Virus genome (UHGV): UHGV-0194471
Reading direction: 5' to 3' (one strand)
DNA length: 37,103 nucleotides
Source of the DNA: a virus
Both the position numbers and the translations under genes were made by a program. Below are positions 18,660 to 37,103 of the stretch, one piece after another (the first letter of the stretch is position 1; every line of letters starts with the position of its first letter). Under the pieces are notes generated by a model, which was given only the letters and a program-made list of their open reading frames with translations, did not search any database and had not been told where the DNA came from.

Positions 18660-18837
18660 GCCATTTCTCCGCGCCGGGCGGATGCCCGGCTTCACCGCCC
18701 AACCTGCTTTATAAAGATTTATAAAGCCCTTTACGCCCCGATTTTTACCTTCTCTTTCCCCGCAGTGATTAAAGCGCTTTAAAAGCGATTTTCGCCCGTT
18801 TTTATAAAGCTATTCCCTGACGTACTACGGAGGGAAT
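18660..18837 (+). promoter_or_regulatory. Repeat-rich intergenic region upstream of the protease/scaffold gene; candidate late promoter
   Basis: Hairpin GCCGGGC-ggat-GCCCGGC (18673..18690); three copies of TTTATAAAG (18708, 18718, 18801); palindrome AAAGCGCTTT; GGAGGG RBS before ATG 18838. Confidence 0.4.
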
Positions 18838-19929: not shown

Positions 19930-19940
19930 AGGAGGAAAAA

Positions 19941-20879: not shown

Positions 20880-21217
20880 TGGCCGTCACTCAACAGGTCA
20901 TTCTGACCACCACCGTCGTTGCCGTTGACATCATTCTCCAGCAGCACTTTGTCGGCTTTGACGGCAAGGTCTGCGCGGCGGGTAAAGCCGTTCTCGGCGT
21001 CGCGGAAACCGATGCCAACGCAGAGGACGCCGTTGGCGTCAATGTGCTGGGGATTATTGCTGTTGAAGCAGGCGCAGCAATTGAAGCCGGTGCTTCCGTC
21101 CAGTCCGATGCCGAAGGCTGCGCCATTGCGAAAACCGGTAGCAACGCTGTCGCCGGAATCGCGCTGGATGCGGCAACGCAGGCGGGAGATACCGTGCGCA
21201 TTCTGCGCGGGGCGTGA
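20876..21217 (+). CDS. Small head-associated protein (Ala/Val-rich, possibly DUF2190-type)
   Basis: 113 aa immediately after the capsid gene; AAAGGAGG RBS. Confidence 0.45.
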   Translation: MMAVTQQVILTTTVVAVDIILQQHFVGFDGKVCAAGKAVLGVAETDANAEDAVGVNVLGIIAVEAGAAIEAGASVQSDAEGCAIAKTGSNAVAGIALDAATQAGDTVRILRGA

Positions 21218-21660
21218 TGATGGACTACTGCACCCCGGACGAACTTACCCTCTCGCTACCGTGGCAGACGCTGGTCTGGCTGTCGAATGAGGATGCCACG
21301 GCGACCACGGTGAATGAGGCCGTGGTGCAGGAAGCAATACGCCATGCTAACGAGCGCGTCGATGCCTACCTGCGCGGGCGCTACACGCTGCCGCTGCCGG
21401 AAGTGCCAACCGTTATCCATGACGTAGCCGTGTCGATTACCCGCTATCGCCTGTACGCCCGTCGCCCGGAAGGAGCGCTGCCGGATGCGGTAAAGGACGA
21501 CTACAAAGACGCCCTGAAACAGCTTACCGATATTCGTGATAACCGGATGACGCTGGCTCTGCCATCCACCGAAACCGATGCGCCGGAGTCCGGCGAGTTC
21601 CGGGTGCGCGCGCGGACGGCAACGTTTGGCGGCGCTAACGGCCTACTGGAGAAATACTGA
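21214..21660 (+). CDS. Mu gp36-like protein (DUF1320), head-tail connector/completion
   Basis: 148 aa in the conserved position after the capsid genes. Confidence 0.5.
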   Translation: MMMDYCTPDELTLSLPWQTLVWLSNEDATATTVNEAVVQEAIRHANERVDAYLRGRYTLPLPEVPTVIHDVAVSITRYRLYARRPEGALPDAVKDDYKDALKQLTDIRDNRMTLALPSTETDAPESGEFRVRARTATFGGANGLLEKY

Positions 21661-22124
21661 TGGACACATTAACTATCGTCGATGACGTGGTGGCGCGACT
21701 GCGCACCAAACTCCCGGCGCTACAGGTGGAATATTTCCCGGAGAAGCCAGAAGAGTTCCGGCTTAACCACCCGGCTGGCGCGGTGCTGGTGAGTTATATC
21801 AGCTCGAAGTACGACAACCCGGATGACACCTGTGCCGTCGTTCAGCCGCAGACCGTCACGCTGTGCGCCACTGTCATTATGCGCCAGCTTAACGGGCGCG
21901 GTGGTGCAGTTGCGGTACTTGAACTGGTGCGCCGTGCGCTCGGCGGCTGGCGTCCGGTGAACTGTCACCGCCCGATACGGCTGAAGCAGGACACGTTTAT
22001 TGGCGAAGTGGCGGGACTCTGGCAGTACGCGCTGGAGTTCGTCACCGACACTATGTTTGTAGAGGACAGCGAGGCGGATGAACTTCCGCTGCTGGTCAGC
22101 ATCGATTATGAGGAAAAATTATGA
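21660..22124 (+). CDS. Mu gp37-like protein (DUF1834)
   Basis: 154 aa, syntenic with Mu gp37. Confidence 0.5.
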   Translation: MDTLTIVDDVVARLRTKLPALQVEYFPEKPEEFRLNHPAGAVLVSYISSKYDNPDDTCAVVQPQTVTLCATVIMRQLNGRGGAVAVLELVRRALGGWRPVNCHRPIRLKQDTFIGEVAGLWQYALEFVTDTMFVEDSEADELPLLVSIDYEEKL

Positions 22125-22351
22125 AATTTATTTACCGCGGCCCGGCCAGCGGCGTGACGTTAGCCGATGGCGCAGAAGTGCTGCTCTGGCCAGAGCATGA
22201 GGTGGAACTGCCGGAAGATCTGGACTATGTGCAGACGCTGCTGGCGCTGAAGCATCTCACACCAGCGCCAGTTGAACCCGAAGTGGTGCCTGAACCTGAA
22301 CCACAACCCCTGAAGGGTAAAAAAGAGAAGGAGACAACCAGTGGCAGCTAA
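22121..22351 (+). CDS. Small protein preceding the sheath gene (Mu gp38-like)
   Basis: 76 aa with a proline/glutamate-rich C-terminus. Confidence 0.4.
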   Translation: MKFIYRGPASGVTLADGAEVLLWPEHEVELPEDLDYVQTLLALKHLTPAPVEPEVVPEPEPQPLKGKKEKETTSGS

Positions 22352-23756
22352 TTATTTACACGGCGTCGAGACTATCGAGATCGAACGCGGCCCGCGCCCG
22401 GTGCGTACCGTTAAGTCGGCGGTGATTGGTCTTGTAGGAACGGCTCCGGCTGGCCCGATTAACACATCGGTATTGTGCCTGTCAGAGAAAGACGCGGCGC
22501 AGTTCGGCTCGCAGGTTTCCGGGTTCAGTATCCCGCAGGCACTGGATGCGATTTATGACCACGGCGCGGGAACGGTGGTGGTAATTAACGTGGCCGATCC
22601 GGCAAAGCACAGCGTAACGGCCTCTACCATCGCACGTCGGGTTGATGATAATCATCAGATCAGGCTGGACTATGGCGCGGTCAGTAATGTCGTTTTGAAG
22701 GTGTCGGGCGCGAGTTCAGATTTAAGCCCGGCAAATTATACCGTTGATGCCGGAACTGGCGTTGTTACATGCCCGACGGTTAACGCAGGCGACACGCTGT
22801 TTGCCACATATCGTTATATCGATCCGACAAAAATCACCGCTGCCGATATCATCGGCGCGATCAATGCCGCAGGCCAGCGTATCGGGATGAAGCTGCTGGA
22901 GGATACCTATAGTCTCTATGGTTTTAAACCGAAAATCCTGATCGCCCCGGTGTTCTGTACGCAAAAATCGGTCAGTACCGAGCTGATTGCCCTGGCGGAA
23001 AAGCTGGACGCTATCACCTATATCGATGCGCCAGTTGGCACGACCTTCAGCCAGGTGCTGGCAGGCCGTGGCGCATCCGGGACTATCAACTTCAATACCA
23101 GTTCCGAACGCGCCCGTCTGTGCTACCCGCACGTTAAGGTGTATGACTCTGTCACCGACAGCGAACGGCTGGAGCCGCTTTCCTCCCGCGCCGCTGGCCT
23201 GCGTGCCAAAGTGGATCTGGATAACGGTTTCTGGTGGAGCAACTCCAACCAGGAGATCCTCGGCATCACTGGTGTGGAACGTTCGCTGTCGGCGATGATT
23301 GATGACCCGCAAAGCGAGGTGAATCAACTGAACGAAAACGGCATCACCACCGTTTTCAACAGCTACGGCACCGGGATGCGACTGTGGGGCAACCGTACCG
23401 CCGCCTGGCCGACCGTTACCCATATGCGCAACTTTGAAAATGTGCGGCGCACCGGGGATGTGATTAACGAGTCGATCCGTTACTTCAGTCAGCAGTATCT
23501 GGATATGCCGATTAACCAGGCGCTGATTGACGCGCTAACCGAATCGGTGAATGCCTATGGCCGCAAGCTGATTGGCGACGGCGCATTGCTGGGCTTCGAG
23601 TGCTGGTATGACCCGGCGCGTAATGAGCAGACCGAGCTGGCCGCTGGCCATCTGCTGCTCAGTTACAAATATACGCCGCCTCCGCCGCTGGAACGGCTGA
23701 CGTTTGAGACGGAAATCACTTCGGAATATCTGGTTAATCTGGAAGGTAAACGCTGA
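22341..23756 (+). CDS. Tail sheath protein (Mu L-like)
   Basis: 471 aa, directly followed by the tube gene. Confidence 0.7.
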   Translation: MAANYLHGVETIEIERGPRPVRTVKSAVIGLVGTAPAGPINTSVLCLSEKDAAQFGSQVSGFSIPQALDAIYDHGAGTVVVINVADPAKHSVTASTIARRVDDNHQIRLDYGAVSNVVLKVSGASSDLSPANYTVDAGTGVVTCPTVNAGDTLFATYRYIDPTKITAADIIGAINAAGQRIGMKLLEDTYSLYGFKPKILIAPVFCTQKSVSTELIALAEKLDAITYIDAPVGTTFSQVLAGRGASGTINFNTSSERARLCYPHVKVYDSVTDSERLEPLSSRAAGLRAKVDLDNGFWWSNSNQEILGITGVERSLSAMIDDPQSEVNQLNENGITTVFNSYGTGMRLWGNRTAAWPTVTHMRNFENVRRTGDVINESIRYFSQQYLDMPINQALIDALTESVNAYGRKLIGDGALLGFECWYDPARNEQTELAAGHLLLSYKYTPPPPLERLTFETEITSEYLVNLEGKR

Positions 23757-24280
23757 TGGGCGGAAAAATTGAAGTTAACCGTATTACCAACGCCAATATC
23801 TATATCAATGGTAATAACCTGCTGGGCCGCGCGGAGGAGATTAAGCTGCCGGATATCAGCATGATTATGCAGGAGCATAAGGCGCTGGGGATGGTCGGCA
23901 AGATTGAGTTGCCCGCTGGGTTCGACAAACTGGAGGGCGAAATCAAGTGGAACAGCTTCTATCGCGAAGTGATGCGCCATGCGGCTAACCCGTATAAGTC
24001 GCTGGCGTTGCAGTGCCGTTCGTCTATCGACCGCTATAACTCAACGGGGCGTATCGATGAAATCCCGCTGGTGACGCACCTGACGGTAATGTTCAAGAAG
24101 AATCCGCTGGGGACGTTTAAGCAACATGAGAACCCGGATTTTTCCAGTGCCTTTAGCTGCACCTATATCAAGCAGGTGGTGGACGGCGAGACGCTGCTGG
24201 AACTGGATTATCTGGCGAATATCTTCAAAGTGAATGGCGTGGATCAGTTGAGCACCTATCGCGCCAATATCGGCGGTTAA
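23756..24280 (+). CDS. Tail tube protein (Mu M-like)
   Basis: 174 aa immediately after the sheath gene. Confidence 0.65.
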   Translation: MGGKIEVNRITNANIYINGNNLLGRAEEIKLPDISMIMQEHKALGMVGKIELPAGFDKLEGEIKWNSFYREVMRHAANPYKSLALQCRSSIDRYNSTGRIDEIPLVTHLTVMFKKNPLGTFKQHENPDFSSAFSCTYIKQVVDGETLLELDYLANIFKVNGVDQLSTYRANIGG

Positions 24281-24328
24281 CCACTCATTAAAGCTGTTTA
24301 ATACTGTTTGTTTCATCCCTCCTCAATA

Positions 24329-24355
24329 CTGTCCTCAGTTCAACACTGAGGACAG
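24329..24355 (+). promoter_or_regulatory. Perfect 10-bp stem hairpin enclosing the Shine-Dalgarno of the tail chaperone gene
   Basis: CTGTCCTCAG-ttcaaca-CTGAGGACAG; the GAGGA in the 3' arm lies 8 nt before ATG 24361; direct repeat AATACTGT upstream. Confidence 0.45.
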
Positions 24356-24360
24356 TCACC

Positions 24361-24663
24361 ATGACAGACACATTCAAACTGCAATACCCCTTCACCGCAC
24401 CCTCCGGGCAGCGTATCGACGAACTGCAACTGACTCGCCTGAAGGTCAAAGATATGCGTGCGGCTCGACGTATCAGCGATAAACCTGAAGACTGGGACGA
24501 ACCGCTACTGGCGGCGATGACCGGACTGGTGCCGGAAGATTTGGCCGAAATGGATCTTGCTGACTATCAGGCGTTGCAGAAACGATTTCAGAACATGCTT
24601 GGGCTGGGCGGCGAACCCGCAGCAACTGTGGCAGGCGATGGCGCTGCTGGCACGGTGGTTTAG
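24361..24663 (+). CDS. Tail assembly chaperone (between tube and tape measure)
   Basis: 100 aa in the conserved chaperone position; an open +1 frame extends to 24763. Confidence 0.55.
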   Translation: MTDTFKLQYPFTAPSGQRIDELQLTRLKVKDMRAARRISDKPEDWDEPLLAAMTGLVPEDLAEMDLADYQALQKRFQNMLGLGGEPAATVAGDGAAGTVV

Positions 24664-24737
24664 GTTTCAACCAGGGGAAATTGACAATCTGGCGGTCGGG
24701 GATTTTGAACGCTGGCTTGATGAGGCCAGCGCCCAGA

Positions 24738-25016
24738 TTAAGCGTGAGAACGGCGGCGGTTGAGTACCCATTCGGTGATGCTGCCGACAAGGGCGAACAG
24801 GAAGGCCAGCAGGGAAATGGCCGGGCTAAATAACCAGCCTGCCAGTGCGGTCAGCAACAGTACACCAACGCTGCCCACACCAATCATCAAAGTTGCCGCC
24901 AGCCCATCATGGCAGTTATGCAGGGTATAGCTGACCACATGAAACAGCGCCCAACCATCCACCGCCACAATCGCGGCGATCAATAGTCCTTTAAACAGGG
25001 TTAATGCGTTGTTCAT
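24738..25016 (-). CDS. Minus-strand small membrane protein (3 predicted TM helices) inside the tail operon
   Basis: 92 aa; AAGAGG RBS 5 nt before the ATG; fills a gap between chaperone and tape-measure genes that no plus-strand gene covers. Confidence 0.5.
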   Translation of the reverse strand: MNNALTLFKGLLIAAIVAVDGWALFHVVSYTLHNCHDGLAATLMIGVGSVGVLLLTALAGWLFSPAISLLAFLFALVGSITEWVLNRRRSHA

Positions 25017-25056
25017 AACGCCTCTTTTTTATTGTGGTTTTCCGGGAGTGTAAAGC

Positions 25057-27831
25057 GTGGCTGCTGAATTTTCAATCGGTGTTCTTATTAGTGGCGCAGT
25101 CACTGGCGCATTTCGTTCTGCTATTGGAGGAACCCAGCGAGCGTTAAACGATCTCCAATCCACCACGCAGCGATTGCAAAACCGTCAGGCCGCGCTGACG
25201 CAGGCGATGACACGTTACGGGCAGGCAGGTATTAGCAGTACATCCCGGCTCAACAACGAATTACAGCAAGTCAGTCGCACAATGGCGCGGCTGGAAAGCC
25301 AGCAAAATAAATTATCCAGCGCAACGGCGCGTAGCCAGGCGATGCGTTCGCAGCGGATGGATCTTTACGCCCAGGGTGCAGAGACCTACGCGCTGGCCAG
25401 AACGATGTCGGCCCCTCTGGTGTCGTCAGTGAAAACCTATGCGGGGTTTGAATCAGGGCTGCGGGATATTGCCGTGACCGGGGATCTGGACAGTAAACAG
25501 GAAGCGGCGATCGATAACGCCATCCGTCAGGCAGCGGGTAAAGTCAACCAGTTGCAGGAAACGCTACTCGGTGGCGTGAATCAACTGGTAGCCGATGGTA
25601 TGAACCCGGAGAAAGCGGCGGGAATGGTGGATTTGCTTGGTAAAACCGCCACGGCCACCAAGGCTGATATGACCGATCTGGCAAAAATGACTTTCGCTTT
25701 TAGCGATGCCTTGAAGATTAGCGATGGAAAGGAGATGCAGGAAGCCTTTGCAATGGCAGCGGTCGGAGCAAAGACCGGCTCCTTTGAACTGAAAGATATG
25801 GCAAAGGCATTGCCTACCCTGACAAAAAGCTTTGCGGCTAAAGGTATTACGGGTAAGGAAGCGATTAAAGAAATTGTCGCCTCTCTCGAAGCTGCAAAAG
25901 GCTCTGGTTCGGCAGAAGAAGCCGTGACCAATATGACCAACTGGATGGGCGCAATGACGCGCGGCGATACCGTCAAGAAATATGAAAAGGCGGGCGTAAA
26001 TTATGAAGCGTCGATGAAAGATTATGTCGCCAAAGGTTATTCGCAATATGAAGCCTCGCTGATGATTGCTGACCGCTTTATTAAAGGTAAAGGCGATGCC
26101 TTTATAAAACAGTGGCAGGAAGCGGGGGCACGTGGCGACGGTGAGTCGCAACAGAAGTTGATGGAGTCGTTTGGTCTGTCGGAGGTTTTTACCGATATTC
26201 AAACCGTCAATCATCTGCTTTCCATGCGTCAGAACTGGGATCAATATCAGTCGAATAAAGCCAAAATGGGTGACCCGGCATCACAGAATGTGCTGGATAC
26301 TGATTTTAATAAGCAAAACGATACCCTGGAAGCCCGCTGGCGAAGCTCGCAGGTAGCGATGAATGAGATGGCAATCAGTATCGGTAGTTCTCTACGCCCG
26401 GCACTGGTCGAATTATCGGAAAGTCTGCTGCCAGTAATGAGTTCTTTTGCAAAATGGCTTTCAGCTAACCCGGAGATGGTGGCGAATATAGCCAAACTAC
26501 TGGCCGGATTTATTGCATTCAAAGCGGCGACGGTCGGTAGCAAGCTGGCTCTGAATATGATGTTGTCGCCGTTTGTGGATTGTATTAAAGCGGTAACGTT
26601 GCTTAACACGAAATGGCTGCTTCTGAAAACAGCCTTTTCGTCTGGCGGCAAACTGGCAGGCATCACTAAGTTGTTCGGCTCGCTAGCGCGTGGTGCCTTG
26701 TCATTAGGCAAAATCCTTGCCGGTGGATTAATGCGTGGCGTGATGATGGCCGCCCGTGCCGTAATGTTTCTGGGCCGTGCGCTGCTGATGAATCCCATCG
26801 GGTTGATTATCACTGGCATCGCGGCAGCCGCGTATCTGATTTATCGCTACTGGGGGCCCATTTCCGGCTTCTTTAAACGGCTGTGGGCGCAGGTCACGGT
26901 AGCGTTTCGCGGGGCGTGGAGCGGCATCAAAGGTATCTGGAGTGGCGTGTCGGGCTGGTTCTCTGGTATCTGGGCGCAAATCAAAACCGCATTCAGCGGT
27001 GGGATTGGCGGCGTGGCAAAGCTGATTACCAACTGGTCGCCGCTGGGCCTGTTCTATAAAGCTTTTGCCGGAGTGATGAAATACTTCGGTATCGATATGC
27101 CGAAGAACTTTACCGATTTTGGCGGTAATCTGATTAACGGTCTGATGAACGGTATCGGCAATGCGCTGACTGCTGCGAAAGAGACGGTCGTTAACTTTGG
27201 TAACTCGATTTCAGGCTGGTTTAAGGAGACGCTGGGCATTCACTCCCCGAGCCAGGTGTTTGCCGGGTTCGGCGACAATATCGCGCAAGGGGCCGCTATC
27301 GGTATCAACCGCACCGCCCCGGATGCGATTTCCGCCAGCCAACAGATGGCGGCGGCGTTAATTCCCCCGTTGCTGGATATCCGCGTTCCGGGTCTGGATG
27401 TTGCCGCAATACCACAGCGACCACCTGTTGCGGGTGGCATCGCGCCTCAACTCAACCCACTGCTGCCGAAAGTCGCACCGCCCACCATTGTGCCAGCCCC
27501 CACTGCGGCGGGTATGGCGCTGGCTGGGGCGGCGGGCGCGGTGTTATCTCGCCGCAAACCGCTGCCGCCAGTGCCACCAAAACCCGCCGTACCTGCCGTT
27601 CCTGAACTGCCGAAAAGTACCGCACCAGCCGCCAAAGGCCGCAATGCCAGTGCGCGTGTGCCGGGGCAGTCATCCGGGGTGAATGTGACCTTTGCGCCGC
27701 AAATTACCATCAAAGGCGCGGCATCGACGACCGAGGGCGAAATCACCTCTGCGCTGAAACTGAGCCTGCACGAACTTGAAAAGATGATGGAGCGGATTAT
27801 GGCGCGTCGTGAACGCCGGGAGTATGCATAA
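25057..27831 (+). CDS. Tail tape measure protein
   Basis: 924 aa, GTG start after GGGAG; long helical protein with internal hydrophobic segments and a Pro-rich C-terminal region; sits after the chaperone. Confidence 0.75.
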   Translation: MAAEFSIGVLISGAVTGAFRSAIGGTQRALNDLQSTTQRLQNRQAALTQAMTRYGQAGISSTSRLNNELQQVSRTMARLESQQNKLSSATARSQAMRSQRMDLYAQGAETYALARTMSAPLVSSVKTYAGFESGLRDIAVTGDLDSKQEAAIDNAIRQAAGKVNQLQETLLGGVNQLVADGMNPEKAAGMVDLLGKTATATKADMTDLAKMTFAFSDALKISDGKEMQEAFAMAAVGAKTGSFELKDMAKALPTLTKSFAAKGITGKEAIKEIVASLEAAKGSGSAEEAVTNMTNWMGAMTRGDTVKKYEKAGVNYEASMKDYVAKGYSQYEASLMIADRFIKGKGDAFIKQWQEAGARGDGESQQKLMESFGLSEVFTDIQTVNHLLSMRQNWDQYQSNKAKMGDPASQNVLDTDFNKQNDTLEARWRSSQVAMNEMAISIGSSLRPALVELSESLLPVMSSFAKWLSANPEMVANIAKLLAGFIAFKAATVGSKLALNMMLSPFVDCIKAVTLLNTKWLLLKTAFSSGGKLAGITKLFGSLARGALSLGKILAGGLMRGVMMAARAVMFLGRALLMNPIGLIITGIAAAAYLIYRYWGPISGFFKRLWAQVTVAFRGAWSGIKGIWSGVSGWFSGIWAQIKTAFSGGIGGVAKLITNWSPLGLFYKAFAGVMKYFGIDMPKNFTDFGGNLINGLMNGIGNALTAAKETVVNFGNSISGWFKETLGIHSPSQVFAGFGDNIAQGAAIGINRTAPDAISASQQMAAALIPPLLDIRVPGLDVAAIPQRPPVAGGIAPQLNPLLPKVAPPTIVPAPTAAGMALAGAAGAVLSRRKPLPPVPPKPAVPAVPELPKSTAPAAKGRNASARVPGQSSGVNVTFAPQITIKGAASTTEGEITSALKLSLHELEKMMERIMARRERREYA

Positions 27832-28748
27832 TGTTTGCCGTACTGGGTGATATTGAGTTTGAGGTGGTGACCTACTGGGACGGCTTTGATGCGTCGTTTG
27901 GTATGGATTATGCCGAACATGCCCGCATTGAAGGCAAACCGGGGTTGCAGTTTATCGGCGAAAAGCTGGATGAAGTGAGTATCAGCCTAGTGTTCCACGA
28001 TCACTATTGCCAGCCGGATGTTGAACTGGCGCGACTGCGTGACGCAATGGTGGCGCATCAGGCGCTGGCGCTGGTATTTGGCAACGGCGACTATCGCGGC
28101 TGGTTTGTGGTAACCGATATTCGGGCAACCAGCCAGCAGACCGATGGCCTCGGTAATGTGCAGGCGTTAAGTGCAGAGCTGTCGCTGAAGGAGTACATCG
28201 GCGATCCGAAAAATCCCCTGACGCCACCGGCTGTGTCCGGGGACGATCCGAATATCGATTCGTGGTCTGACGATGCCGACGACAGTTTTTCCGGCAGCGA
28301 TATGTTCGACGGCCTAAGCGATATTACCGACGGGCTGGATGCGGCATCGGACGCGCTGGATGCCGCAGAGCAGGCGTTCGATGAGGCAGTGTCGTGGGCG
28401 GAAGATGTGGTGGAGCAAGTTGAAGATGCGATTGATGACGTACTTTCACCGCTGGAGGACGTTCTCAATGAGGTGTTATCACCACTCGATGAGGTGATGC
28501 AGGCGCTGGAGGGTATCATGGGCGGCGGCGTACTGACCGATGCTCTCGGCGAGGTCGGGCAAGTCGCCTCGCAGATTTACGATGAAATCAGCAGTACGTT
28601 GACCGGGCTTGACGGTATCACCCCCGACAACTTTGCCGATCTGTTCTCGCAGGCACTGGACGTGGTGCGCAACGGTCAGTCATTGATGGAAGCGTGTTCT
28701 CCCGCCGTTAGCAGGCTGGCGGCGGCAATCATTACCAGGAGCGTGTGA
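27831..28748 (+). CDS. Mu N-like DNA circulation protein / P2 gpU-like tail protein, with acidic C-terminal extension
   Basis: N-terminal ~120 aa resemble the DNA_circ_N / gpU fold; the C-terminal ~170 aa are strongly D/E-rich with repeated VLSPL(E/D) motifs. Confidence 0.55.
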   Translation: MFAVLGDIEFEVVTYWDGFDASFGMDYAEHARIEGKPGLQFIGEKLDEVSISLVFHDHYCQPDVELARLRDAMVAHQALALVFGNGDYRGWFVVTDIRATSQQTDGLGNVQALSAELSLKEYIGDPKNPLTPPAVSGDDPNIDSWSDDADDSFSGSDMFDGLSDITDGLDAASDALDAAEQAFDEAVSWAEDVVEQVEDAIDDVLSPLEDVLNEVLSPLDEVMQALEGIMGGGVLTDALGEVGQVASQIYDEISSTLTGLDGITPDNFADLFSQALDVVRNGQSLMEACSPAVSRLAAAIITRSV

Positions 28749-28966
28749 TGGGCGGCTGGATTGAACATATCACCACCGAGGGCGAGCGCTGGGATAATCT
28801 GGCGTTCCTCTATTACGGCGATCCAATGGGCTATGAGCGCATCATTGTCGCTAACCCCCATATTGCGATCACGCCGACACTGGCCTCCGGGCTGCGGTTG
28901 CGTATTCCGGTGATCGGCCCGATGCAGGTGCATAACGTTGATGAGGTGCCGCCGTGGCTCAGGTAA
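28745..28966 (+). CDS. Tail protein X-like (LysM-like)
   Basis: 73 aa, …WDNLAFLYYGDP…ANPHIA…LASGLRLRIPV resembles P2 gpX. Confidence 0.55.
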   Translation: MMGGWIEHITTEGERWDNLAFLYYGDPMGYERIIVANPHIAITPTLASGLRLRIPVIGPMQVHNVDEVPPWLR

Positions 28967-30054
28967 ATGCCGTTATCACCCCCGTTTTCACCCTGTTTTA
29001 CGGGCAGAAAGATATCACTCACGATATTGCTCCTTTTGTCCTGAGCGTGACGTATACCGACAGTCTCAAGAGCGAATCGGATGAAATCGACGTGCAGGTG
29101 GAAGACACCGCCGGGCGCTGGCGCGAGGCGTGGTATCCGGGCAAAGGCGATATGCTGATGCTGAAGTTGGGCTATCAGGGCGAAGCGTTGCTGGACTGTG
29201 GAGCGTTCTCCATCGATGAGATTGAGCTGGGCGCACCGCCGGATACGGTATCCATTCGCGGCGTGGCGACGTCGGTCAACAGCGCTCTGCGTACCGCCTC
29301 CAGCGAGGGCTACGAAGAGACGACGCTGGATGCGATTGCCAGCCGTATCGCGCAGAAGCATGGTCTGAAGCTGGTCGGTCAGATAGAGCCGATTACCATT
29401 GACCGGGTGACGCAATACGCGGAAACCGACGTCGGTTTTCTGAAGCGGCTGGCGGGTGAGTATGGTTATGCGCTGAAAGTCACCACTGGCGAGCTGGTGT
29501 TTTCCCATCTGGCTACACTGCGAAGTAACGCGCCGGTGACGACGCTGACGCCGCAGGATGTAGCGCGCTGGTCGCTGCGCGATACCATCAACCGCATCTA
29601 TAAGGATGCAAAGGTGGCGCATCAGAAGAGTAAAGAGAAGACGCTGGTGACGTACCACGCCGACGGCCCGCCGACCACGGAGACGCGTGGTAAATCGACC
29701 AGCGCCGATACGCTCAAGGTCAATGCACGGGCGGCGGATCAGGGGACGGCGCAGGTGAAAGCCGAGGCGGCGCTGGATGACCATAACGAGTATCAGCAGA
29801 CCGGTTCGCTCTCGATGATGGGCAACACGCAGCTTATCGCCGGGAACAAAATCACTCTCGACGGGTTCGGCGTGCTCTCCGGGGAGTGGCTGATCACCAG
29901 CGCCCGTCACTCGTTTGACCGTTCATCGGGCTACAGCACCGAAATTGAGGTCGGACGTGGCCCGAAAACGGCCTCCGGCGGCGGGAAGAAGAAAAAACCG
30001 GATACGCTGACCGTCTATCACCCGGACGGCCCACCCACCCAGGAGAAAAAATGA
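28954..30054 (+). CDS. Tail protein, P2 gpD / Mu P-like
   Basis: 366 aa in the conserved position after the X-like gene. Confidence 0.6.
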   Translation: MAQVNAVITPVFTLFYGQKDITHDIAPFVLSVTYTDSLKSESDEIDVQVEDTAGRWREAWYPGKGDMLMLKLGYQGEALLDCGAFSIDEIELGAPPDTVSIRGVATSVNSALRTASSEGYEETTLDAIASRIAQKHGLKLVGQIEPITIDRVTQYAETDVGFLKRLAGEYGYALKVTTGELVFSHLATLRSNAPVTTLTPQDVARWSLRDTINRIYKDAKVAHQKSKEKTLVTYHADGPPTTETRGKSTSADTLKVNARAADQGTAQVKAEAALDDHNEYQQTGSLSMMGNTQLIAGNKITLDGFGVLSGEWLITSARHSFDRSSGYSTEIEVGRGPKTASGGGKKKKPDTLTVYHPDGPPTQEKK

Positions 30055-30542
30055 AAGGCGTCACCCGACAGACCGGGATTATCAGCGATATCGACGAGGT
30101 GAAGGTGTGCGTGCGCGTCACCCTGCCGGAATGCGACGATCTGCGCACCAACTGGCTCCCCATCCTGCAACGCAATACGCAGGACAATAAGGACTACTGG
30201 CTGCCGGATATCGGCGAGCAGGTGGAGGTGCTGCTGGATGATAACGGCGAGGATGGCGTGGTGCTGGGGGCGGTCTATTCGTCGGTGGATACGCCACCGG
30301 TGACGGACAAAGACAAGCGCTATGTGCGGTTCTCCGATAAGGCCGCGATTGAGTACGACCGCAAACAGCACCAGTTGACCATTAATGGCGGCATTGAAAA
30401 AATCGTGATTGAGGTGAAAACCAGCGTCAGCATCACCGCGCCGCAGGTGGTCATCACGGGTAATGTCCGCGTCACCGGCAATATCAGTGCGTCAGGCTCT
30501 ATCATCGACGCTGGCGGCAATACCAACCATCACTCTCATTAA
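30051..30542 (+). CDS. Baseplate spike / assembly protein V-like (Mu gp45-like)
   Basis: 163 aa, position within the baseplate cluster. Confidence 0.55.
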   Translation: MKGVTRQTGIISDIDEVKVCVRVTLPECDDLRTNWLPILQRNTQDNKDYWLPDIGEQVEVLLDDNGEDGVVLGAVYSSVDTPPVTDKDKRYVRFSDKAAIEYDRKQHQLTINGGIEKIVIEVKTSVSITAPQVVITGNVRVTGNISASGSIIDAGGNTNHHSH

Positions 30543-30588
30543 AGCGGTTTAATACCGCCACTTTAGCAACGGGGGCGACAATGCCCCC

Positions 30589-30948
30589 ATGAGCACACAA
30601 TCCCATCCTTTAAATCTGCACTGGCAACCGGCCCTGAAACGCGACGGCGAGTACGTCTGTGGGCTGGAGGATATCAGCCAGGCCGTTCACATCATTCTGC
30701 GCACGCCGCGCGGTAGCGATCCCCATCGCCCCTTTTTCGGTAGCGACCTGTGGCGCTATATCGACTGGCCTGCTGAACGGGCGATTCCCCATGTGGTGCG
30801 TGAGTCGGTGGAGGCTATCCGCCACTGGGAGCCGCGCTGCAAATTTCTCAAAGTGGTGCCGGAACTGGACGGCGAACATCTCACGCTGCGCATCCAGTGG
30901 CGCGCCGCCGATGGCGTTATTAATGAAACGGAGGTGGTATGGCGTTAG
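30589..30948 (+). CDS. Baseplate protein, GPW/gp25 family
   Basis: 119 aa with …ILRTPRGSDPHRPFFGSDLWRYID…, typical of gp25/GPW. Confidence 0.6.
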   Translation: MSTQSHPLNLHWQPALKRDGEYVCGLEDISQAVHIILRTPRGSDPHRPFFGSDLWRYIDWPAERAIPHVVRESVEAIRHWEPRCKFLKVVPELDGEHLTLRIQWRAADGVINETEVVWR

Positions 30949-32054: not shown

Positions 32055-32766
32055 GTTACCGCTTCAACCGCCGCTCGCCGGGGATGAACGCTTTACCCGG
32101 CTGGCAAATCTTGCCGCTGAACGCTTCGCACAACTCGATCTGACCGCGCTTCTGATTTACCTGGTGGATCTGGTGGATGCCACGGCGCTGCCGTCGCTGG
32201 CAGAACAGTTCCACGTTCAGGGGCTGGAAGGCTGGCTGTTTGCCCGCGATGAGCGACAAAAGCGCGATCTGATCAAGCAGGCCATTGAGCTGCACCGCTA
32301 TCGCGGTACGCCGTGGGCAGTGCGTCAGGTACTGAAGATTCTGGCGTTGGACGGCGATATCAGCGAGTGGTTTGAGTATGGCGGTAAGCCGTACTTTTTC
32401 CGCATGGATGTCACGCTTGAGACGCGCGGGCTGACTGAGGATGAATTTAACGCGCTGATTGTGCTGATCCATGAGTACAAGAACGTCCGCTCAAAGCTGG
32501 AGATGCTGACTATCTGGCTGATTAACCAGAGCCAGATCCCGGTTATCGCCAGTGCTGTTCAGGGCGGCGAGATTGCTACCGTTCTGCCGTGGATTGCGGA
32601 GAGCGTGAGTCAGTCGTCTGCGGTTTATCTGGCGACGGAGTGTTTGAGTGCAGAGGTGGTAACGGTGTTGCCTCCGCTGCATGGCAATGTTGAGCAGACC
32701 AGCGTTATGAGTGTTGGAGCGGGCTGCTGGAGTATTGAGTTTGTCACTGTTTACCCGGAGGAGTAA
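32047..32766 (+). CDS. Tail protein I-like (P2 gpI / Mu gp48-like)
   Basis: 239 aa, …ATALPSLAEQFHVQGLEGW… pattern; lies before the tail fibre. Confidence 0.55.
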   Translation: MDKLPLQPPLAGDERFTRLANLAAERFAQLDLTALLIYLVDLVDATALPSLAEQFHVQGLEGWLFARDERQKRDLIKQAIELHRYRGTPWAVRQVLKILALDGDISEWFEYGGKPYFFRMDVTLETRGLTEDEFNALIVLIHEYKNVRSKLEMLTIWLINQSQIPVIASAVQGGEIATVLPWIAESVSQSSAVYLATECLSAEVVTVLPPLHGNVEQTSVMSVGAGCWSIEFVTVYPEE

Positions 32767-34466
32767 TGGCGAGTGAATTTTTTACCATTTTAACCGCCGC
32801 TGGCCGCGCGAAGATTGCTGCGGCGCTGGCGGAACAAAAGCAGATAGTGCTGCAAACAATGGTCGTTGGCGACGGCGGCGGGCAGTATGCCGAACCGAAA
32901 GAGAGCCAGACAAAGGTGGTGCGTGAAGTCTGGCGCGGGTCACTGAATACGCTGAAAATCGCCCCGGAAAACCCGGCGTGGGTGATTGCCGAGGCGGTAC
33001 TGCCGGAAGCGAAAGGCGGCTGGTATATCCGCGAGGTGGGATTGCTGGATATGGACGGCGTGCTGATTGCCATCGGCAAGTTCCCGGAAACCTATAAGCC
33101 GAAGCTGCCTGCCGGGGCCAGTAAGCAAATTGTGATCCGCGCTGTGATGGAAGTGACGAACGCGGCGGCGGTAACGCTGATGGTTGATCCGTCGCTGGTG
33201 ATGGCAACGGTAGATTATGTGGACTCCAGTATTGAAGAGCACGAAAGATCACATAATCACCCGGACGCAACGCTGACGCAGAAAGGCTTTACGCAGCTTA
33301 ACAGCTCCACCAATAGCACGCTGGAAACGCAGGCAGCAACGCCGAAGGCGGTGAAGGCGGCGATGGATAAGGCGAATGAGGCACTGGAAAAAGCTGGGGC
33401 TGATAAAGCGCATAAACATCCGTGGGCCGATATTACCGGGGTGCCGGATGGGACAACGGCGCAGAAAGGGGTTGTGAAGCTTAATAGCTCAACGAACAGT
33501 ACCAGTACGACGGAGGCTGCGACACCGAGTGCGGTTAAGGCGGCATATGACCTGGCGAATGGTAAGGCGGCGGGGAGCCATAAACATGCCTGGGGCGATA
33601 TTACCGGGGTACCGGATGGCACTACGGCGCAAAAAGGGATCGTAAAGCTCAACAGCGCGACGAACAGCACCAGTACTACCGAAGCGGCCACGCCCGGCGC
33701 AGTGAAGGCGGCGTATGACCTGGCGAACGGGAAAGCGGCTTCCAGCCATACTCACGCATGGAGTCAGATTACCGGCGTACCGGATGCAACTACAGCGCAA
33801 AAAGGGGTTGTGAAGCTTAATAGCGCGACGAACAGTACCAGTACGACTGAAGCCGCAACGCCGAGCGCGGTTAAGGCGGCGTATGACAAGGCGAATACAG
33901 CAATCTCCAGTTTTGCTCTTTTCACGTCGAATGGGACGTTTACGGTGCCAGTCGGGGTAACGAAAGTGATGGTGGAAATGATTGGAGGTGGAGGTGGTGG
34001 CGGCGGCGGTGGTGTGGGTGGTGGTGAGCGAATTGGTTATCCGACAGCAGGTAAACCATCACTTTTTGTTCAAGGGATTGTTGCTGTGAACTCTGGACAA
34101 AATGTAACCGTCACAGTCGGCGGAGGCGGTGTTGGGGGATCATCAAAAGTAGATACTGGTGGTGGTTCGATGACCGGGAGTAATGGGTACGCCGGAGGAA
34201 ACTCAATTTTCTTAACGCTCACTTCTGTTGGTGGTAGCGGCGGCGGCGGTGCATTGCCAGATTCTGGTCCTGGCAACGCATTAAATGAGCCAGGTTCTGA
34301 TTCAACGCATGGCTATGGCGGGGGGACTAAGTATAACTCGCAGAAAAATGCCGTAGGTTATGGTTCGAGTGGTGCGGCTGGTACCTCTAAAGGCGTCAGA
34401 ACTGTTGAAGGGGACTCTACAGCAGGTGGCAATGGTGCTTCAGGTTTTGTCAGAATATGGTGGTAA
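32766..34466 (+). CDS. Tail fibre protein with tandem repeats and Gly-rich C-terminal domain
   Basis: 566 aa; conserved N-terminal baseplate-attachment region; five ~40-aa repeats; C-terminus with poly-Gly runs and lower GC. Confidence 0.7.
   Translation: MASEFFTILTAAGRAKIAAALAEQKQIVLQTMVVGDGGGQYAEPKESQTKVVREVWRGSLNTLKIAPENPAWVIAEAVLPEAKGGWYIREVGLLDMDGVLIAIGKFPETYKPKLPAGASKQIVIRAVMEVTNAAAVTLMVDPSLVMATVDYVDSSIEEHERSHNHPDATLTQKGFTQLNSSTNSTLETQAATPKAVKAAMDKANEALEKAGADKAHKHPWADITGVPDGTTAQKGVVKLNSSTNSTSTTEAATPSAVKAAYDLANGKAAGSHKHAWGDITGVPDGTTAQKGIVKLNSATNSTSTTEAATPGAVKAAYDLANGKAASSHTHAWSQITGVPDATTAQKGVVKLNSATNSTSTTEAATPSAVKAAYDKANTAISSFALFTSNGTFTVPVGVTKVMVEMIGGGGGGGGGGVGGGERIGYPTAGKPSLFVQGIVAVNSGQNVTVTVGGGGVGGSSKVDTGGGSMTGSNGYAGGNSIFLTLTSVGGSGGGGALPDSGPGNALNEPGSDSTHGYGGGTKYNSQKNAVGYGSSGAAGTSKGVRTVEGDSTAGGNGASGFVRIWW
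33280..33900 (+). repeat. Five tandem ~120-nt coding repeats in the tail fibre gene
   Basis: Repeated peptide …TAQKGVVKLNS(S/A)TNSTSTTEAATP(S/G)AVKAAYD(L/K)AN…. Confidence 0.7.
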
Positions 34467-34469
34467 CAC

Positions 34470-35072
34470 ATGAAATATGCGTATTTTGAACCCTCATCAA
34501 TGAAGGTTTTAGACTGGCTGGATACCGAACAATTATCCTTTGTTTTGCCTGACAGTGTTGTTTCGGTAACTGATGAGCAATGGTGTTATCGTGATCGTGA
34601 ATTCTGGGTCAATATTTCAACCACAGAAATCATCACAACACCTCCACCCGGTGATTTTTATCGGCTTGATGGTGATAAGTGGGTGTATGACGCAACCAGC
34701 TATACTGCTGCGCTAGACGGTGCTAAGTCACTAGTTGTTAAGGCAATCAAGGCGCTACGCGATGAAGTCACTGCCGATTATATCATTATCGGCGACTATC
34801 ACTTTCACAGCGATGCCAGCAGTCGTATCCAGCAAATGTCACTCACCAGGATGGGGCAAACGAAGCAAATCCCCAAAGGCTTAATGTGGCAGACCAAAAA
34901 CCTCGGACTTCTCGAGCTAACCAATGAAATCGCGGCGCAGTTTGAGTCCATTACAATGGATCACGATATGCGCCTCTTTGCCAATGCCCAGCGACATATT
35001 GCCGCCGTTGAGGCGCTGGAAGATATCCTGGCAGTTCAGGAGTATGACTACTCTACGGGGTGGCAACCATGA
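34470..35072 (+). CDS. Tail fibre assembly protein
   Basis: 200 aa immediately downstream of the fibre gene; stop overlaps the next start. Confidence 0.55.
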   Translation: MKYAYFEPSSMKVLDWLDTEQLSFVLPDSVVSVTDEQWCYRDREFWVNISTTEIITTPPPGDFYRLDGDKWVYDATSYTAALDGAKSLVVKAIKALRDEVTADYIIIGDYHFHSDASSRIQQMSLTRMGQTKQIPKGLMWQTKNLGLLELTNEIAAQFESITMDHDMRLFANAQRHIAAVEALEDILAVQEYDYSTGWQP

Positions 35073-35521
35073 AGCCGGTGTATCTGGCGTTCTATAAAGG
35101 GCGAGCCGATCATCATGGGTTCGCACGTCTTTCCGACTGGCTGACGCGGCTGGTGACGCGGGGTGAGTATTCTCACTGCGAGCTGGCTGTTGACCAGGGT
35201 AACGGCGAGTTTCTTTGTTATTCGTCGTCGGTGCGTGACAAGGGGGTGCGCTGTAAGCAAATGCCGCTGCCACTCGATAAATGGGATCTTATCGCGCTAA
35301 ATGCGCTACCAACCAGTGTGGAGCAGTTCTTCCGTCGAAACGACGCCATGAAATATGACTGGCTGGGGGCTGTGGGATTCGTTGTTTTTAATCGTGGACG
35401 GGAGAACAAATATTTCTGTAGCGAGTTTTGCGCAGATTTTCTTGGACTGGTCGATAGCTGGCGTTATTCACCCAATATGCTCCACGCGCTGGCCAGCAGT
35501 ATTCAGACTATGAAGTTATAA
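35069..35521 (+). CDS. Cys/His-rich protein of unknown function
   Basis: 150 aa with six Cys (YSHCE, FLCYSS, VRCKQ, FCSEFC); ATG 35069 preceded by GGGGTGG and overlapping the upstream stop. Confidence 0.5.
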   Translation: MKPVYLAFYKGRADHHGFARLSDWLTRLVTRGEYSHCELAVDQGNGEFLCYSSSVRDKGVRCKQMPLPLDKWDLIALNALPTSVEQFFRRNDAMKYDWLGAVGFVVFNRGRENKYFCSEFCADFLGLVDSWRYSPNMLHALASSIQTMKL

Positions 35522-35534
35522 GGGAAACAGCGAC

Positions 35535-35621
35535 CAGAGTCAGGCGGTCACCTGACTCTGACCAGCTAACCCGCAGGAAGTGTCTGCGAGCCGCCCAGGG
35601 CTGCCACTGATGGCCATCAGT
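35535..35621 (+). promoter_or_regulatory. Two palindromic elements upstream of the dam gene
   Basis: Hairpin CAGAGTCAGG-cggtca-CCTGACTCTG (35535..35560) and a perfect 16-bp palindrome ACTGATGGCCATCAGT (35606..35621), ~47 bp before the dam ATG. Confidence 0.4.
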
Positions 35622-35667
35622 CCAATAAGCCTAACAGTTTTTCACATACTGAAAAAGGTTTGCAGAA

Positions 35668-36441
35668 ATGAAAACATTACCCATTATTCCGTGGCCCGGC
35701 GGTAAGCGTCGTCTGGCCAAAAAGTTATTACCGTTATTTCCTGAGCACCAGTGTTATGTAGAGCCATTCTGCGGCGGTGCAGCCTTGTATTTCATGAAGG
35801 AGCCGGTTGAAGCTGAAGTCCTGAACGATATCAACGGCGAACTGGTGAATCTGTACCGTGTGGTTAAAAATCATCTTGAAGAGTTTGTGCGCCAGTTCAA
35901 GTGGGCGTTGAGCAGCAGGCAGATTTTTGAATGGTCGAAAATGACCATCCCGGAGACGCTAACTGATATTCAGCGTGCAGCGCGGTTTTATTATCTCCAG
36001 AAGCAATCATTCGGAGGGAAAGTGGAATCACAGACGTATGGAACGGCGACCACTTCTGCACCACGGCTTAATCTGCTAAGGCTGGAAGAGGAGTTGAGCG
36101 CCGCCCATTTGCGGCTATCACGCACGTTTGTAGAACATTTACCGTGGCGTACCTGCATTGAGAAGTATGATCGCCCGCACACACTGTTCTATTGCGATCC
36201 CCCGTATTGGGGAACGGAGGGCTACGGTGTTGAATTTGGACTGGAGCAGTACACCCAACTTGCAGAGTTGGCCAGAACGATAAAAGGCAGGATGTTGATC
36301 AGTGTGAACGATATCCCGGAGATGCGTGAAACCTTTGCGGACTTGTCGATTGATACGGTAGATATTCGCTATACGTTGAGCGGTGGGCCTAATGCTAATC
36401 GCTCGAAAGTCAGCCGTGAGCTGGTCATTCGTAACTGGTAA
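35668..36441 (+). CDS. dam: DNA N6-adenine methyltransferase (Dam-like)
   Basis: FCGGAA (AdoMet-binding motif I-like) and DPPY catalytic motif; 257 aa; last gene before the prophage right end. Confidence 0.8.
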   Translation: MKTLPIIPWPGGKRRLAKKLLPLFPEHQCYVEPFCGGAALYFMKEPVEAEVLNDINGELVNLYRVVKNHLEEFVRQFKWALSSRQIFEWSKMTIPETLTDIQRAARFYYLQKQSFGGKVESQTYGTATTSAPRLNLLRLEEELSAAHLRLSRTFVEHLPWRTCIEKYDRPHTLFYCDPPYWGTEGYGVEFGLEQYTQLAELARTIKGRMLISVNDIPEMRETFADLSIDTVDIRYTLSGGPNANRSKVSRELVIRNW

Positions 36442-36525
36442 AGTGGAATTCTTTTGCAATAGGTGAAAAAAGTCGCAGCGCGATTTATCTCGCAGATTCA
36501 GGCGAATTTATCGCGCGCGGCTTTA
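36442..36525. repeat. Right-end terminal repeats, candidate transposase-binding sites
   Basis: Reverse complement contains GCGATAAATTCGC and GAGATAAATCGCG, matching the GATAAA motifs at the left end at the same offset from the terminus. Confidence 0.4.
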
Positions 36526-36883
36526 TTTTCAGCACCTGTAATAAGCGTGCGGTGTGTTTGGGCGTATAAAGCAGCTGATTAATACAAATTCGCACACGCG
36601 CTTCTATGCCCTGCGAAATAGTATCGATACTGCGTTTAATGGTATGAAAATCATTCAGCAGGTCGGTAGCTTTGCGGAAAAAATAACGCCCGGACTCCGT
36701 TAACTCAATGCTGCGGGTACTGCGAGTGAACAGCACCACATCCAGCCCCGTCTCCATACGTTTAATGGTGTAGCTAATGGCGGAAGTGGTTAAACCCAAC
36801 TCTTCTGCGGCTTTACTGAAGCTGCCAAAACGCGCAGCGGTAGTAAATGCCAACAGATTCTCTTCGGTAAAAATTGAGTTCAT
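36485..36883 (-). pseudogene. 5' portion of host LysR-family regulator gene (HTH domain), fused to prophage-end sequence
   Basis: N-terminal LysR HTH (…FSKAAEELGLTTSAISYTIKRMETGLDVVLFTR…); the host-derived reading frame ends at the junction near 36526 and the last 13 codons (IKPRAINSPESAR) are read from prophage DNA. Confidence 0.7.
36526..36531. repeat. Right copy of target-site duplication (TTTTCA)
   Basis: Identical to 565..570; host LysR sequence resumes here. Confidence 0.7.
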
Positions 36884-37103
36884 TAAACCATTCTCGCCAT
36901 TATCTACTATGAATTTCTCCAGCTATGACTGTAGAGGTATCGGTTAAAGATAGATAATCATTTTTGAATAACTTTTAATACCCGTCGCGTTTAGTCGTCG
37001 CTTCGCTTAATTTTTGTCCGCCATATTCTGAAATTATCCCCACGCAGTTACCCGCCAGAAAACCCAGTAATGTCACCGTCCAGTTCATCCCGCTGGCAAA
37101 AAA

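Follow-up and report, generated by a model that had tools for sequence, protein, structure and literature searches.

At the right end of a Mu-like prophage of Escherichia coli, an orphan Dam-type DNA methyltransferase gene stands where sister prophages carry com and mom. Here, we show by comparison of these prophages that dam was substituted for com-mom beneath the same leader and ribosome-binding site, without Com, in an exchange that is precise at the ATG. Both genes on which the original prediction was built are real, ORF-A at 35069-35521 (150 aa) and the methyltransferase at 35668-36441 of the window, by which we mean the whole analysed stretch of 37,103 nucleotides (UHGV virus genome UHGV-0194471). 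We consider it likely that the window presents a Dam (D12 class, alpha-group) in a right-end DNA-modification slot, and that ORF-A is a separate gene that belongs to the tail-fibre module. The features are as follows.

716-1123, minus strand: Mor/C-family late transcription activator (PF08765 Mor, E 1.7e-39; PHROG 532, late transcriptional activator)
34470-35072, plus strand: tail-fibre assembly gene, DUF4376 type (PF14301, E 1.4e-9; PHROG tail families)
35069-35521, plus strand: ORF-A, 150 aa, predicted permuted papain-like (YiiX/YaeF, NlpC-P60 superfamily) Cys-His hydrolase/acyltransferase, putative catalytic pair H36/C117
35522-35667, plus strand: conserved 146-bp leader/regulatory region up to the start codon of the swap, common to the com-mom sister prophages
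35535-35560, plus strand: 10-bp GC-rich hairpin, CAGAGTCAGG / CCTGACTCTG, directly past the ORF-A stop, without a U-tract
35606-35621, no strand assigned: perfect 16-bp palindrome ACTGATGGCCATCAGT, candidate activator-binding site
35668-36441, plus strand: orphan D12/Dam-family N6-adenine DNA methyltransferase, 257 aa (PF02086, TIGR00571, PADLOC)
36442-36525, no strand assigned: prophage right end, presumed transposase-binding end, terminal ...ATTTATCGCGCGCGGCTTTA
36526-36531, no strand assigned: right copy of the TTTTCA target-site duplication in yahB (left copy at 565-570)

The window is a ~36-kb BcepMu-like (Mu-like) transposable prophage, at about 571-36525, in E. coli yahB; the uninterrupted yahB locus aligns to window positions 1-570 and 36526-37103 with a 6-bp overlap. 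The phage type is apparent from the minus strand, which encodes a transposase, an AAA+ B-like protein, GemA and Mor, and from the closest Dam, which is found in a Bcepmuvirus; the Dam of Bcepmuvirus PhiKM is 71% identical to the window enzyme. The methyltransferase gene is the final gene of the prophage, with host yahB DNA from 36526. The mom-bearing A35 prophage ends in the same terminal ...ATTTATCGCGCGCGGCTTTA, and the dam-bearing prophage L089 does so with one mismatch; the last ~25 bp of the phage are retained across the cargo swap. By megablast, none of 50,697 phage records matched the right end, and the com-mom sister prophage occurs in 2 of 5,426 complete E. coli genomes, from all of which the dam cassette is absent at megablast level.

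The evidence for the exchange comes from the region around the start codon of dam. The 146-bp leader has a mean column identity of 94% across four prophages, whatever their cargo, and it is followed by com and mom, after an ORF-A homologue, in E. coli A35, in a Salmonella Hillegersberg contig and in one IMG/VR contig. Homology between the window and the com-mom-bearing A35 prophage covers ORF-A and the entire intergenic region and ends exactly at the ATG, as it does with the com-mom locus L087 of Salmonella, whereas the dam-bearing L089 matches the window continuously to the phage end. Among IMG/VR contigs with the leader, four carry dam and one com-mom. The sister loci L001, L087 and L093 encode both the Com zinc ribbon (PF10122) and Mom (PF25680), and the window encodes neither. 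The ATG of dam takes the position of the com ATG in the sister phages, and the 146 bp that precede it correspond by homology to the DNA 5′ of com in these phages, so that they leave no room for com. The placement of the methyltransferase in the com-mom slot, as originally proposed, is thereby borne out. The wider proposal, that both genes form a functional replacement of com-mom, is supported for the methyltransferase, as to its place, but not for ORF-A: a homologue of ORF-A also lies 5′ of com-mom in the sister prophages, which speaks against its being a replacement part, a regulator or a cofactor.

Such a methyltransferase-for-mom swap is already known from B3, FluMu and Pnm1. In the Mu-like transposable phage B3 of Pseudomonas, ORF47 (Com) and ORF48 (Dam-like) make up the corresponding pair, and ORF48 has been described as replacing Mom, its activity being untested as of 2011 (PMC3299994); along its full length it shares 65.5% identity with the window enzyme. 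The B3 gene differs in that it follows and overlaps a Com homologue, while the window has no com, and in its location, which is within the tail cluster ahead of the tape-measure gene and not at the genome end. In FluMu and Pnm1 the mom position is taken by Hia5-type methyltransferases (Drozdz et al, 2012; PMC3299994), as it is by Hin1523, Hia5 and Nme1821, and enzymes of this type were silent in lysogens, even on induction (PMC3299994). Like the window enzyme, Hia5, Hin1523 and Nme1821 are orphan adenine methyltransferases encoded at the right ends of Mu-like prophages, in synteny with mom; in contrast to it, they belong to another subfamily with local similarity at DPPY only, their genes follow com, and their specificity is relaxed. 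Hia5 has since been adopted as a reagent for chromatin footprinting (Fiber-seq). In SuMu the order is ORF-A homologue, Com, methyltransferase, and an ORF-A homologue is also found upstream in many Pasteurellaceae and Neisseriaceae loci. Compared with com-mom of Mu itself, dam shares the place of the last genes at the right end, the leader found with com-mom in sister BcepMu-like prophages and presumably the same late, activator-dependent control, but it encodes N6-methylation, whereas Mom carries out a methylcarbamoyl/acetamido modification of adenine. Of 80 other loci, 10 have a D12 Dam in the slot after ORF-A, 23 a Hia5-type enzyme and 4 a C5 methyltransferase.

Is the methyltransferase itself an intact and solitary enzyme? 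It matches PF02086 (D12 class) with an E-value of 1.5e-28 and 100.7 bits (gathering score 22), passes the cut-off of the Dam-family model TIGR00571 marginally (116.5 bits against 114.85) and is matched by the PADLOC type II model MTase_II at 6e-109. The motifs GGK (residues 11-13), FCGGA (motif I, 34-38) and DPPY (motif IV, 177-180) are in place; FCGGA is a variant of the AdoMet motif I FxGxG that is common to the whole B3-ORF48-type subfamily, and this variant, GGK and DPPY are all kept family-wide. Against the diverged sister copy in L089, whose product shares 97% of its amino acids with the window enzyme, the codon differences are 79 synonymous and 9 non-synonymous, and three IMG/VR contigs carry 100% identical copies. 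Judged from its sequence, the enzyme looks intact and under purifying selection, with no sign of inactivation. Its orphan status, also part of the original prediction, holds to this extent: it is the last prophage gene, the ORFs scanned, which were those of the early and accessory regions, matched no restriction-endonuclease-like family, and PADLOC reported no defence-system partner for it or for nearby accessory genes. On these scans of the early and accessory regions, we reject the possibility that it is one half of a restriction-modification pair.

The methylation target is probably GATC. The window enzyme shares its Pfam family, motif order, GGK and DPPY with E. coli Dam (EcoDam), DpnM and T4 Dam, which are GATC-specific and have solved structures, and it has near full-length matches to DpnM (8.5e-16) and EcoDam (1.5e-15), at a low similarity of 60-61 bits. 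It scores 70.9 bits against the EcoDam equivalog NF008152, for which the cut-off is 441. In EcoDam, N120, L122, R124 and P134 of a beta-hairpin reportedly contact GATC. In our phmmer alignment, which has high posterior support at these four hairpin positions, they correspond to G116, K118, E120 and S130 of the window enzyme and are not conserved; the B3-ORF48-type subfamily has a conserved hairpin segment of its own, FGG(K/R)...GT.TTS. Since the contact residues are replaced, GATC specificity is not established. Phage T1 Dam is GATC-specific; we rejected it as a close relative that could anchor the specificity, as it is unrelated in sequence. The accessible literature, including the papers on VP882, PY54 and Chania, yielded no report on the specificity of close relatives.

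The divergent target-recognition hairpin, together with the shared genomic position, could also mean that the enzyme, like Hia5, Hin1523 and Nme1821, methylates adenine with relaxed specificity or non-specifically and gives broad, Mom-like protection. We regard this as improbable. BLASTP against a member of the Hia5 family (281 aa, H. influenzae Mu-like prophage locus L061) gives a 49-residue local match around DPPY only, the window enzyme falls in a separate BLAST cluster and exceeds the cut-off of the Dam family, and B3 ORF48 is absent among the 1000 closest relatives of Hia5 (PMC3299994). A broader reading, in which B3-ORF48-type Dam enzymes would be non-GATC or relaxed with Mom-like broad protection and, independently of this, the ORF-A family would be thiol enzymes that may act on the fibre, the host surface or defence molecules, is only slightly less doubtful.

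More serious is the question whether protection from restriction is the chief function of this Dam at all. E. coli possesses its own Dam, and since such a host already methylates GATC, a GATC enzyme would add little protection there. The enzyme might instead keep phage GATC sites methylated in the replication burst, avoiding nicking by MutH, or serve phage regulation, transposition, packaging or lysogen physiology, as described for the Dam proteins of P1, T4 and 933W; the roles of phage Dam homologues have been summarised (PMC5005818, PMC8541194). The prophage has fewer GATC sites than expected (O/E 0.51), as has also been reported for enterobacteriophages. Nonetheless, dam holds the slot and the leader of a dedicated anti-restriction operon, the same slot in relatives is filled by other broad protective methyltransferases of Hia5 and C5 type (PMC3299994), and a GATC specificity is unproven for the window enzyme. 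We see a chiefly non-anti-restriction function as a minority possibility, though the strongest of the alternatives.

What controls expression of dam beneath the inherited leader? The leader RNA folds at -53.3 kcal/mol (z -3.4), the hairpin at 35535-35560 is part of the MFE fold, and its stem is kept in the sister prophages. The palindrome ACTGATGGCCATCAGT is invariant in four prophages and is the sole perfect match in the window, with 0.08 matches expected by chance at up to 3 mismatches. The other matches have 3 mismatches each and lie within two overlapping long plus-strand ORFs, 14236-15843 and 15750-17321, which we read as putative head-region genes; no other intergenic region or putative late promoter of the window has the palindrome. 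No sigma-70 promoter was found in a scan of 34900-36700, leader included, no Rfam family matched 35300-36600 at E-values up to 1, and blastn of the leader (35500-35700) against phage records including Mu gave no DNA similarity. By homology of the leader, we expect dam to be transcribed in the manner of com-mom in the sister phages, and by analogy with Mu it would be a late function activated by Mor/C. The Mor homologue at 716-1123, at the far end of the leftward early operon, is on the same analogy a candidate activator of this com-mom-type promoter, and a Mor site at -43.5 is speculative. Given the absence of a sigma-70 promoter and the unrepeated palindrome, dependence on Mor is an analogy only. 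Translation of dam would not need Com, unlike that of mom, B3 dam and hia5. The enzyme would then methylate replicated phage DNA ahead of packaging. In the next host, this DNA would be shielded from m6A-sensitive restriction; in addition or instead, its sites would be kept fully methylated during the replication burst.

ORF-A had been described as a protein with six Cys/His-Cys motifs. It contains five Cys (37, 50, 62, 117 and 121), four His and one H-C dipeptide, with no CxxC pair, and across 30 homologues C117 is the only invariant Cys, C37 and C50 being nearly so while C62 and C121 vary. We rejected a Com-like zinc finger, as conserved CxxC/CxxH pairs are lacking. The HMM and fold checks that had been suggested for this protein returned no Pfam family even at E 10, no NCBIfam match and, in a structure search, papain-like folds only, instead of a Cys-rich regulator. 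ORF-A shows a conserved, putatively catalytic permuted His...Cys pair and the predicted fold of the Peptidase_C92 type, represented by YiiX/YaeF (PDB 2if6, 3kw0; NlpC/P60 superfamily), from which it differs by its shorter length (150 aa against 180-214) and its phage tail-module context. As no Pfam model matches, it is to be seen as a distant superfamily relative and not as a demonstrated member of PF05708. The structural model suggests a permuted papain-like thiol enzyme (His36/Cys117), presumably active and cytoplasmic. We also rejected an enoyl-CoA hydratase/crotonase, the name attached to PHROG 1128, because no ECH Pfam family matches; the "enoyl-CoA hydratase-like" name in PHROGs appears to be a propagated mis-annotation.

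The surroundings of ORF-A connect it to the tail-fibre module. Its ATG overlaps the TGA of the DUF4376 tail-fibre assembly gene (ATGA), and the two genes are probably translationally coupled. In at least 37 of 74 other loci, the ORF-A homologue likewise has an assembly gene of this type 5′ of it, and the family (PHROG 1128, at least 213 homologues) travels with DUF4376 genes across Mu-like, P2-like and other prophages. Its codon differences against the diverged sister copy are 38 synonymous and 15 non-synonymous. Elsewhere, homologues lie 5′ of Hia5-type or C5 methyltransferases, in 7 P2-like loci they are found immediately 5′ of the sheath and tube genes, and in Moraxella phages they occur without any methyltransferase. 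As ORF-A keeps its place whether com-mom, a methyltransferase or P2-type sheath genes follow, it lies outside the modification cassette. The case named against the original prediction, a protein of a known tail-fibre accessory family beside an inactive methyltransferase, thus applies in part: by position ORF-A is in the tail-fibre module, but no tail-fibre accessory family that has been characterised matches it, and the methyltransferase gives no hint of inactivation.

These observations leave a very small chance that ORF-A serves the methyltransferase as a Cys-rich, metal-binding regulator or cofactor, analogous to Com, and that the two genes together replace com-mom. The genes are adjacent on the same strand, and ORF-A homologues are often beside DNA-modification genes in Mu-like prophages, but an ORF-A homologue coexists with genuine Com and Mom in the sister prophages and exists without a methyltransferase in P2-like and Moraxella phages, the Cys pattern and the predicted papain-like hydrolase fold do not fit, and the swap junction lies 3′ of ORF-A, at the dam ATG. 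Less remote, if still unlikely, is a lysogenic-conversion moron, perhaps an acyl-hydrolase or acyltransferase, that acts on lipids or the envelope of the host and has no tail-fibre or lytic function. PHROG places ORF-A in the moron category, the modelled fold is related to PLAAT/LRAT acyltransferases and RID, and in P2-like prophages ORF-A lies between the tail-fibre assembly gene and the sheath gene, which we take to be the known P2 Z/fun moron site. Against this, the overlap with the stop of a late tail-fibre assembly gene implies late co-expression, the sequence has no evident signal peptide or transmembrane segment, and ORF-A stays next to the assembly gene in Mu-like, P2-like and other phages. 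Within the tail-fibre module, which we prefer, the biological role of ORF-A is a guess. If it acts on the fibre, it might for instance mature or clean tail fibres as an isopeptidase or deacylase, say by stripping off ubiquitin-like conjugates that the host has attached; modification of the receptor is an alternative.

In conclusion, the current understanding of Mu-like phages is unchanged by these results, and the locus provides an unusually clean natural case of cassette exchange in a phage anti-restriction slot. For ORF-A, the annotation of a widespread phage family is corrected to that of a predicted papain-like thiol enzyme. In Mu-like prophages, the slot past the tail-fibre module is a hot spot for at least four modification genes, Mom, D12 Dam, Hia5-type and C5 methyltransferases, which makes it useful in prophage annotation and in the mining of anti-restriction enzymes.

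The methyltransferase gene dam of this prophage begins precisely where a sister prophage begins the Mu-like anti-restriction operon com-mom. The relevant genes at the right-hand end are as follows.

34470-35072, + strand: gene for a DUF4376 tail-fibre-assembly protein, directly upstream of ORF-A
35069-35521, + strand: ORF-A, 150 aa
35668-36441, + strand: dam, encoding a 257-aa D12-class N6-adenine DNA methyltransferase (PF02086, TIGR00571, PADLOC), with GGK at residues 11-13, FCGGA at 34-38 and DPPY at 177-180

Matches to 34757-35671 at 88% occur in two complete E. coli genomes, A35 and OkiPb01694. In A35, Com, Mom and then host DNA come after the ORF-A homologue. The whole 146-bp spacer between ORF-A and dam aligns with that of A35 at ~93-94% identity, and homology stops at the initiation codon (GCAGAA followed by ATGAAAAC for dam, GCAGA followed by ATGACAGAC for com). 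Com and Mom are also found on a Salmonella contig with a 94%-identical ORF-A. The 19 contigs with a 90%-identical ORF-A have one common gene neighbourhood; the one locus shown has the same 257-aa methyltransferase next, at the same spacing, and its homology to the window reaches the phage end, at a different insertion site. Among IMG/VR contigs with the leader, as we call the spacer, four carry dam (three 100% identical) and one com-mom. This distribution of cargo among sister prophages and contigs shows that one phage lineage circulates with two cargo variants, and the original prediction of a replacement at the com/mom position was right for the methyltransferase.

Both predicted genes, ORF-A and dam, are real. 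The dam product matches PF02086 (E 1.5e-28), the TIGR00571 'Dam family' (116.5 bits, cut-off 114.85) and the PADLOC type II MTase model (6e-109), and its closest relatives with a solved structure are DpnM and EcoDam (E ~1e-15). Compared with the diverged copy in the dam-bearing relative L089 (88% nucleotide, 97% amino-acid identity), the codon differences are 79 synonymous and 9 non-synonymous, and dam is therefore under purifying selection; neither the motifs nor this comparison gives any sign of inactivation. The enzyme was described as an orphan, which holds for what was scanned: the family scans detected no partner resembling an endonuclease in the early and accessory regions, outside the stretch with the head and most tail ORFs (13679-30939).

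What does the enzyme methylate? EcoDam contacts GATC through N120, L122, R124 and P134. The phmmer alignment of the two enzymes, gap-free and confident through the recognition hairpin, places G116, K118, E120 and S130 of the window enzyme at these positions, and its subfamily has a conserved segment of its own, FGG(K/R)...GT.TTS. We regard GATC as the somewhat probable target, another short motif as rather unlikely and relaxed specificity as improbable. In the prophage (571-36525), GATC (O/E 0.51) and CTAG (0.42) are the rarest 4-bp palindromes against second-order expectation, with CATG and GGCC also depleted (~0.6); the scarcity of GATC is compatible with either reading of specificity. Sequence comparison rejected assignment to the Hia5 type, the orphan adenine methyltransferases at the mom position of Mu-like prophages, and T1 Dam is unrelated.

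The leader (35522-35667) is 94% conserved among four prophages with either cargo, compared with 85-92% in flanking coding DNA. It contains three dyad symmetries, one a perfect 16-bp palindrome (35606-35621), and the fold of its RNA is more stable than those of shuffled controls (z -3.4); in a predicted long-range helix, the Shine-Dalgarno region pairs with a segment further upstream. The leader holds neither a sigma-70 consensus nor an Rfam match. By analogy with Mu Pmom, it may act as a late promoter that depends on an activator, the Mor homologue. Because dam starts at the com start codon, its translation should be independent of Com.

ORF-A, in contrast, had been taken for a Cys-rich part of the modification replacement, and neither description stands. 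It has five Cys and no CxxC, and C117 is the sole invariant Cys in 30 homologues, where further invariant residues include H36, E38, S118, E119, D23, R56 and D57. The family profile matches 3kw0, labelled 'cysteine peptidase', at E 3.5e-5, and the alignment brings the His and Cys motifs of the two into register; the AlphaFold model has a pLDDT of 86.5, and viral structure matches include 'permuted papain-like amidase, YaeF/YiiX, C92'; ORF-A is therefore predicted to be a thiol enzyme of the permuted NlpC/P60 type. Its label in PHROG, 'enoyl-CoA hydratase/carnithine racemase-like', is a mis-annotation, as the fold evidence points to a thiol enzyme. The ATG of ORF-A overlaps the TGA of the tail-fibre-assembly gene (ATGA). 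Since at least half of the examined loci have such a gene before the homologue, and homologues accompany Mom at some loci, methyltransferases at others and neither at others still, we assign ORF-A to the tail-fibre module and not to the modification cassette. ORF-A might mature the fibre, modify the receptor or envelope, act in counter-defence or serve as a moron; our literature search found no paper characterising it.

From other species, we collected 80 loci with an ORF-A homologue and sorted them by what lies downstream of it.

10 loci: D12 Dam of the cluster shared with the window enzyme, preceded in 8 of 10 by a Com-like CxxC...CxxC ORF
23 loci: Hia5/Hin1523-type methyltransferase (281 aa, DPPY near position 194)
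4 loci: C5-cytosine methyltransferase, in 3 of 4 also with a Hia5-type gene
7 loci: tail sheath and tube (P2-like prophages)
Remaining loci: host genes or unknowns

A C5-cytosine enzyme occurs in some Pasteurellaceae and Kingella prophages (L027, L055, L057, L062), in the last three loci beside both a Com-like ORF and the Hia5-type gene. Dam of Kingella kingae L041 is apparently in two fragments, which suggests a frameshift. The P2-like prophages, of Pasteurellaceae and Neisseriaceae (L016, L020, L021, L030, L039, L040, L072), have the order tail-fibre-assembly gene, ORF-A homologue, sheath and tube, at the site of P2's non-essential Z/fun gene.

The prophage of the window is transposable and interrupts the E. 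coli gene yahB. The uninterrupted locus aligns to 1-570 and 36526-37103 with a 6-bp overlap, TTTTCA, which marks the target duplication; its presence on both sides (565-570 and 36526-36531) implies a duplication of 5-6 bp. At 36525 the phage ends in ...ATTTATCGCGCGCGGCTTTA, a terminus that mom-bearing A35 shares exactly and dam-bearing L089 shares but for one base. The last phage gene is dam, and the truncated 5' part of yahB (132-aa ORF, 36485-36883, - strand) runs into the phage end antisense to it. The early genes read leftward.

~7544-716, leftward: early operon with a regulator, DDE transposase, AAA+ B-like protein, DUF3164, GemA and Mor/C-family activator
4254-6008, leftward: DDE transposase
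716-1123, leftward: Mor/C-family activator

Repressor and lysis genes read rightward, as do the tail genes at the right-hand end. We take this layout to be BcepMu-type, in line with the nearest phage Dam (71% identity) coming from a Bcepmuvirus. Relatives differ mainly in the tail-fibre gene (32766-34466), where 2.9 tandem copies of a 168-bp unit (33411-33896) give four Phage_fiber_2 repeats and a glycine-rich C-terminal domain (PF21722) closes the protein. A candidate moron, ORF 24738-25016 on the - strand, codes for 92 aa of hydrophobic, membrane-protein-like sequence and lies in a 393-bp gap in the tail operon, which itself reads rightward; it directly precedes a 924-aa ORF (25057-27831) that is probably the tape-measure gene, from its size and position. 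At 9106-11393, with the repressor region on one side and the lysis genes on the other, two overlapping genes encode a 360-aa homologue of the nucleoid-associated protein NA37 and a 402-aa protein; PADLOC matched neither these accessory genes nor ORF 24738-25016. Several TTTATAAAG-like motif copies in the intergenic region 18660-18837, ahead of a possible head gene (18838-19929), could be late-activator sites, and are unlike the palindrome upstream of dam.

Finally, the exchange has precedents. The Hia5-type enzymes Hin1523, Hia5 and Nme1821 take the place of mom in Mu-like prophages (PMC3299994). Phage SuMu has the order tail-fibre assembly gene, ORF-A homologue, Com, methyltransferase, and the Pseudomonas Mu-like phage B3 has Com and a Dam homologue in place of Mom (PMC3299994), its ORF48 being 65.5% identical to the window methyltransferase. 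The case described here therefore belongs to a known kind: replacement of Mom by a methyltransferase is already established, and what distinguishes this one is an exchange that dispenses with Com and is precise to the start codon.
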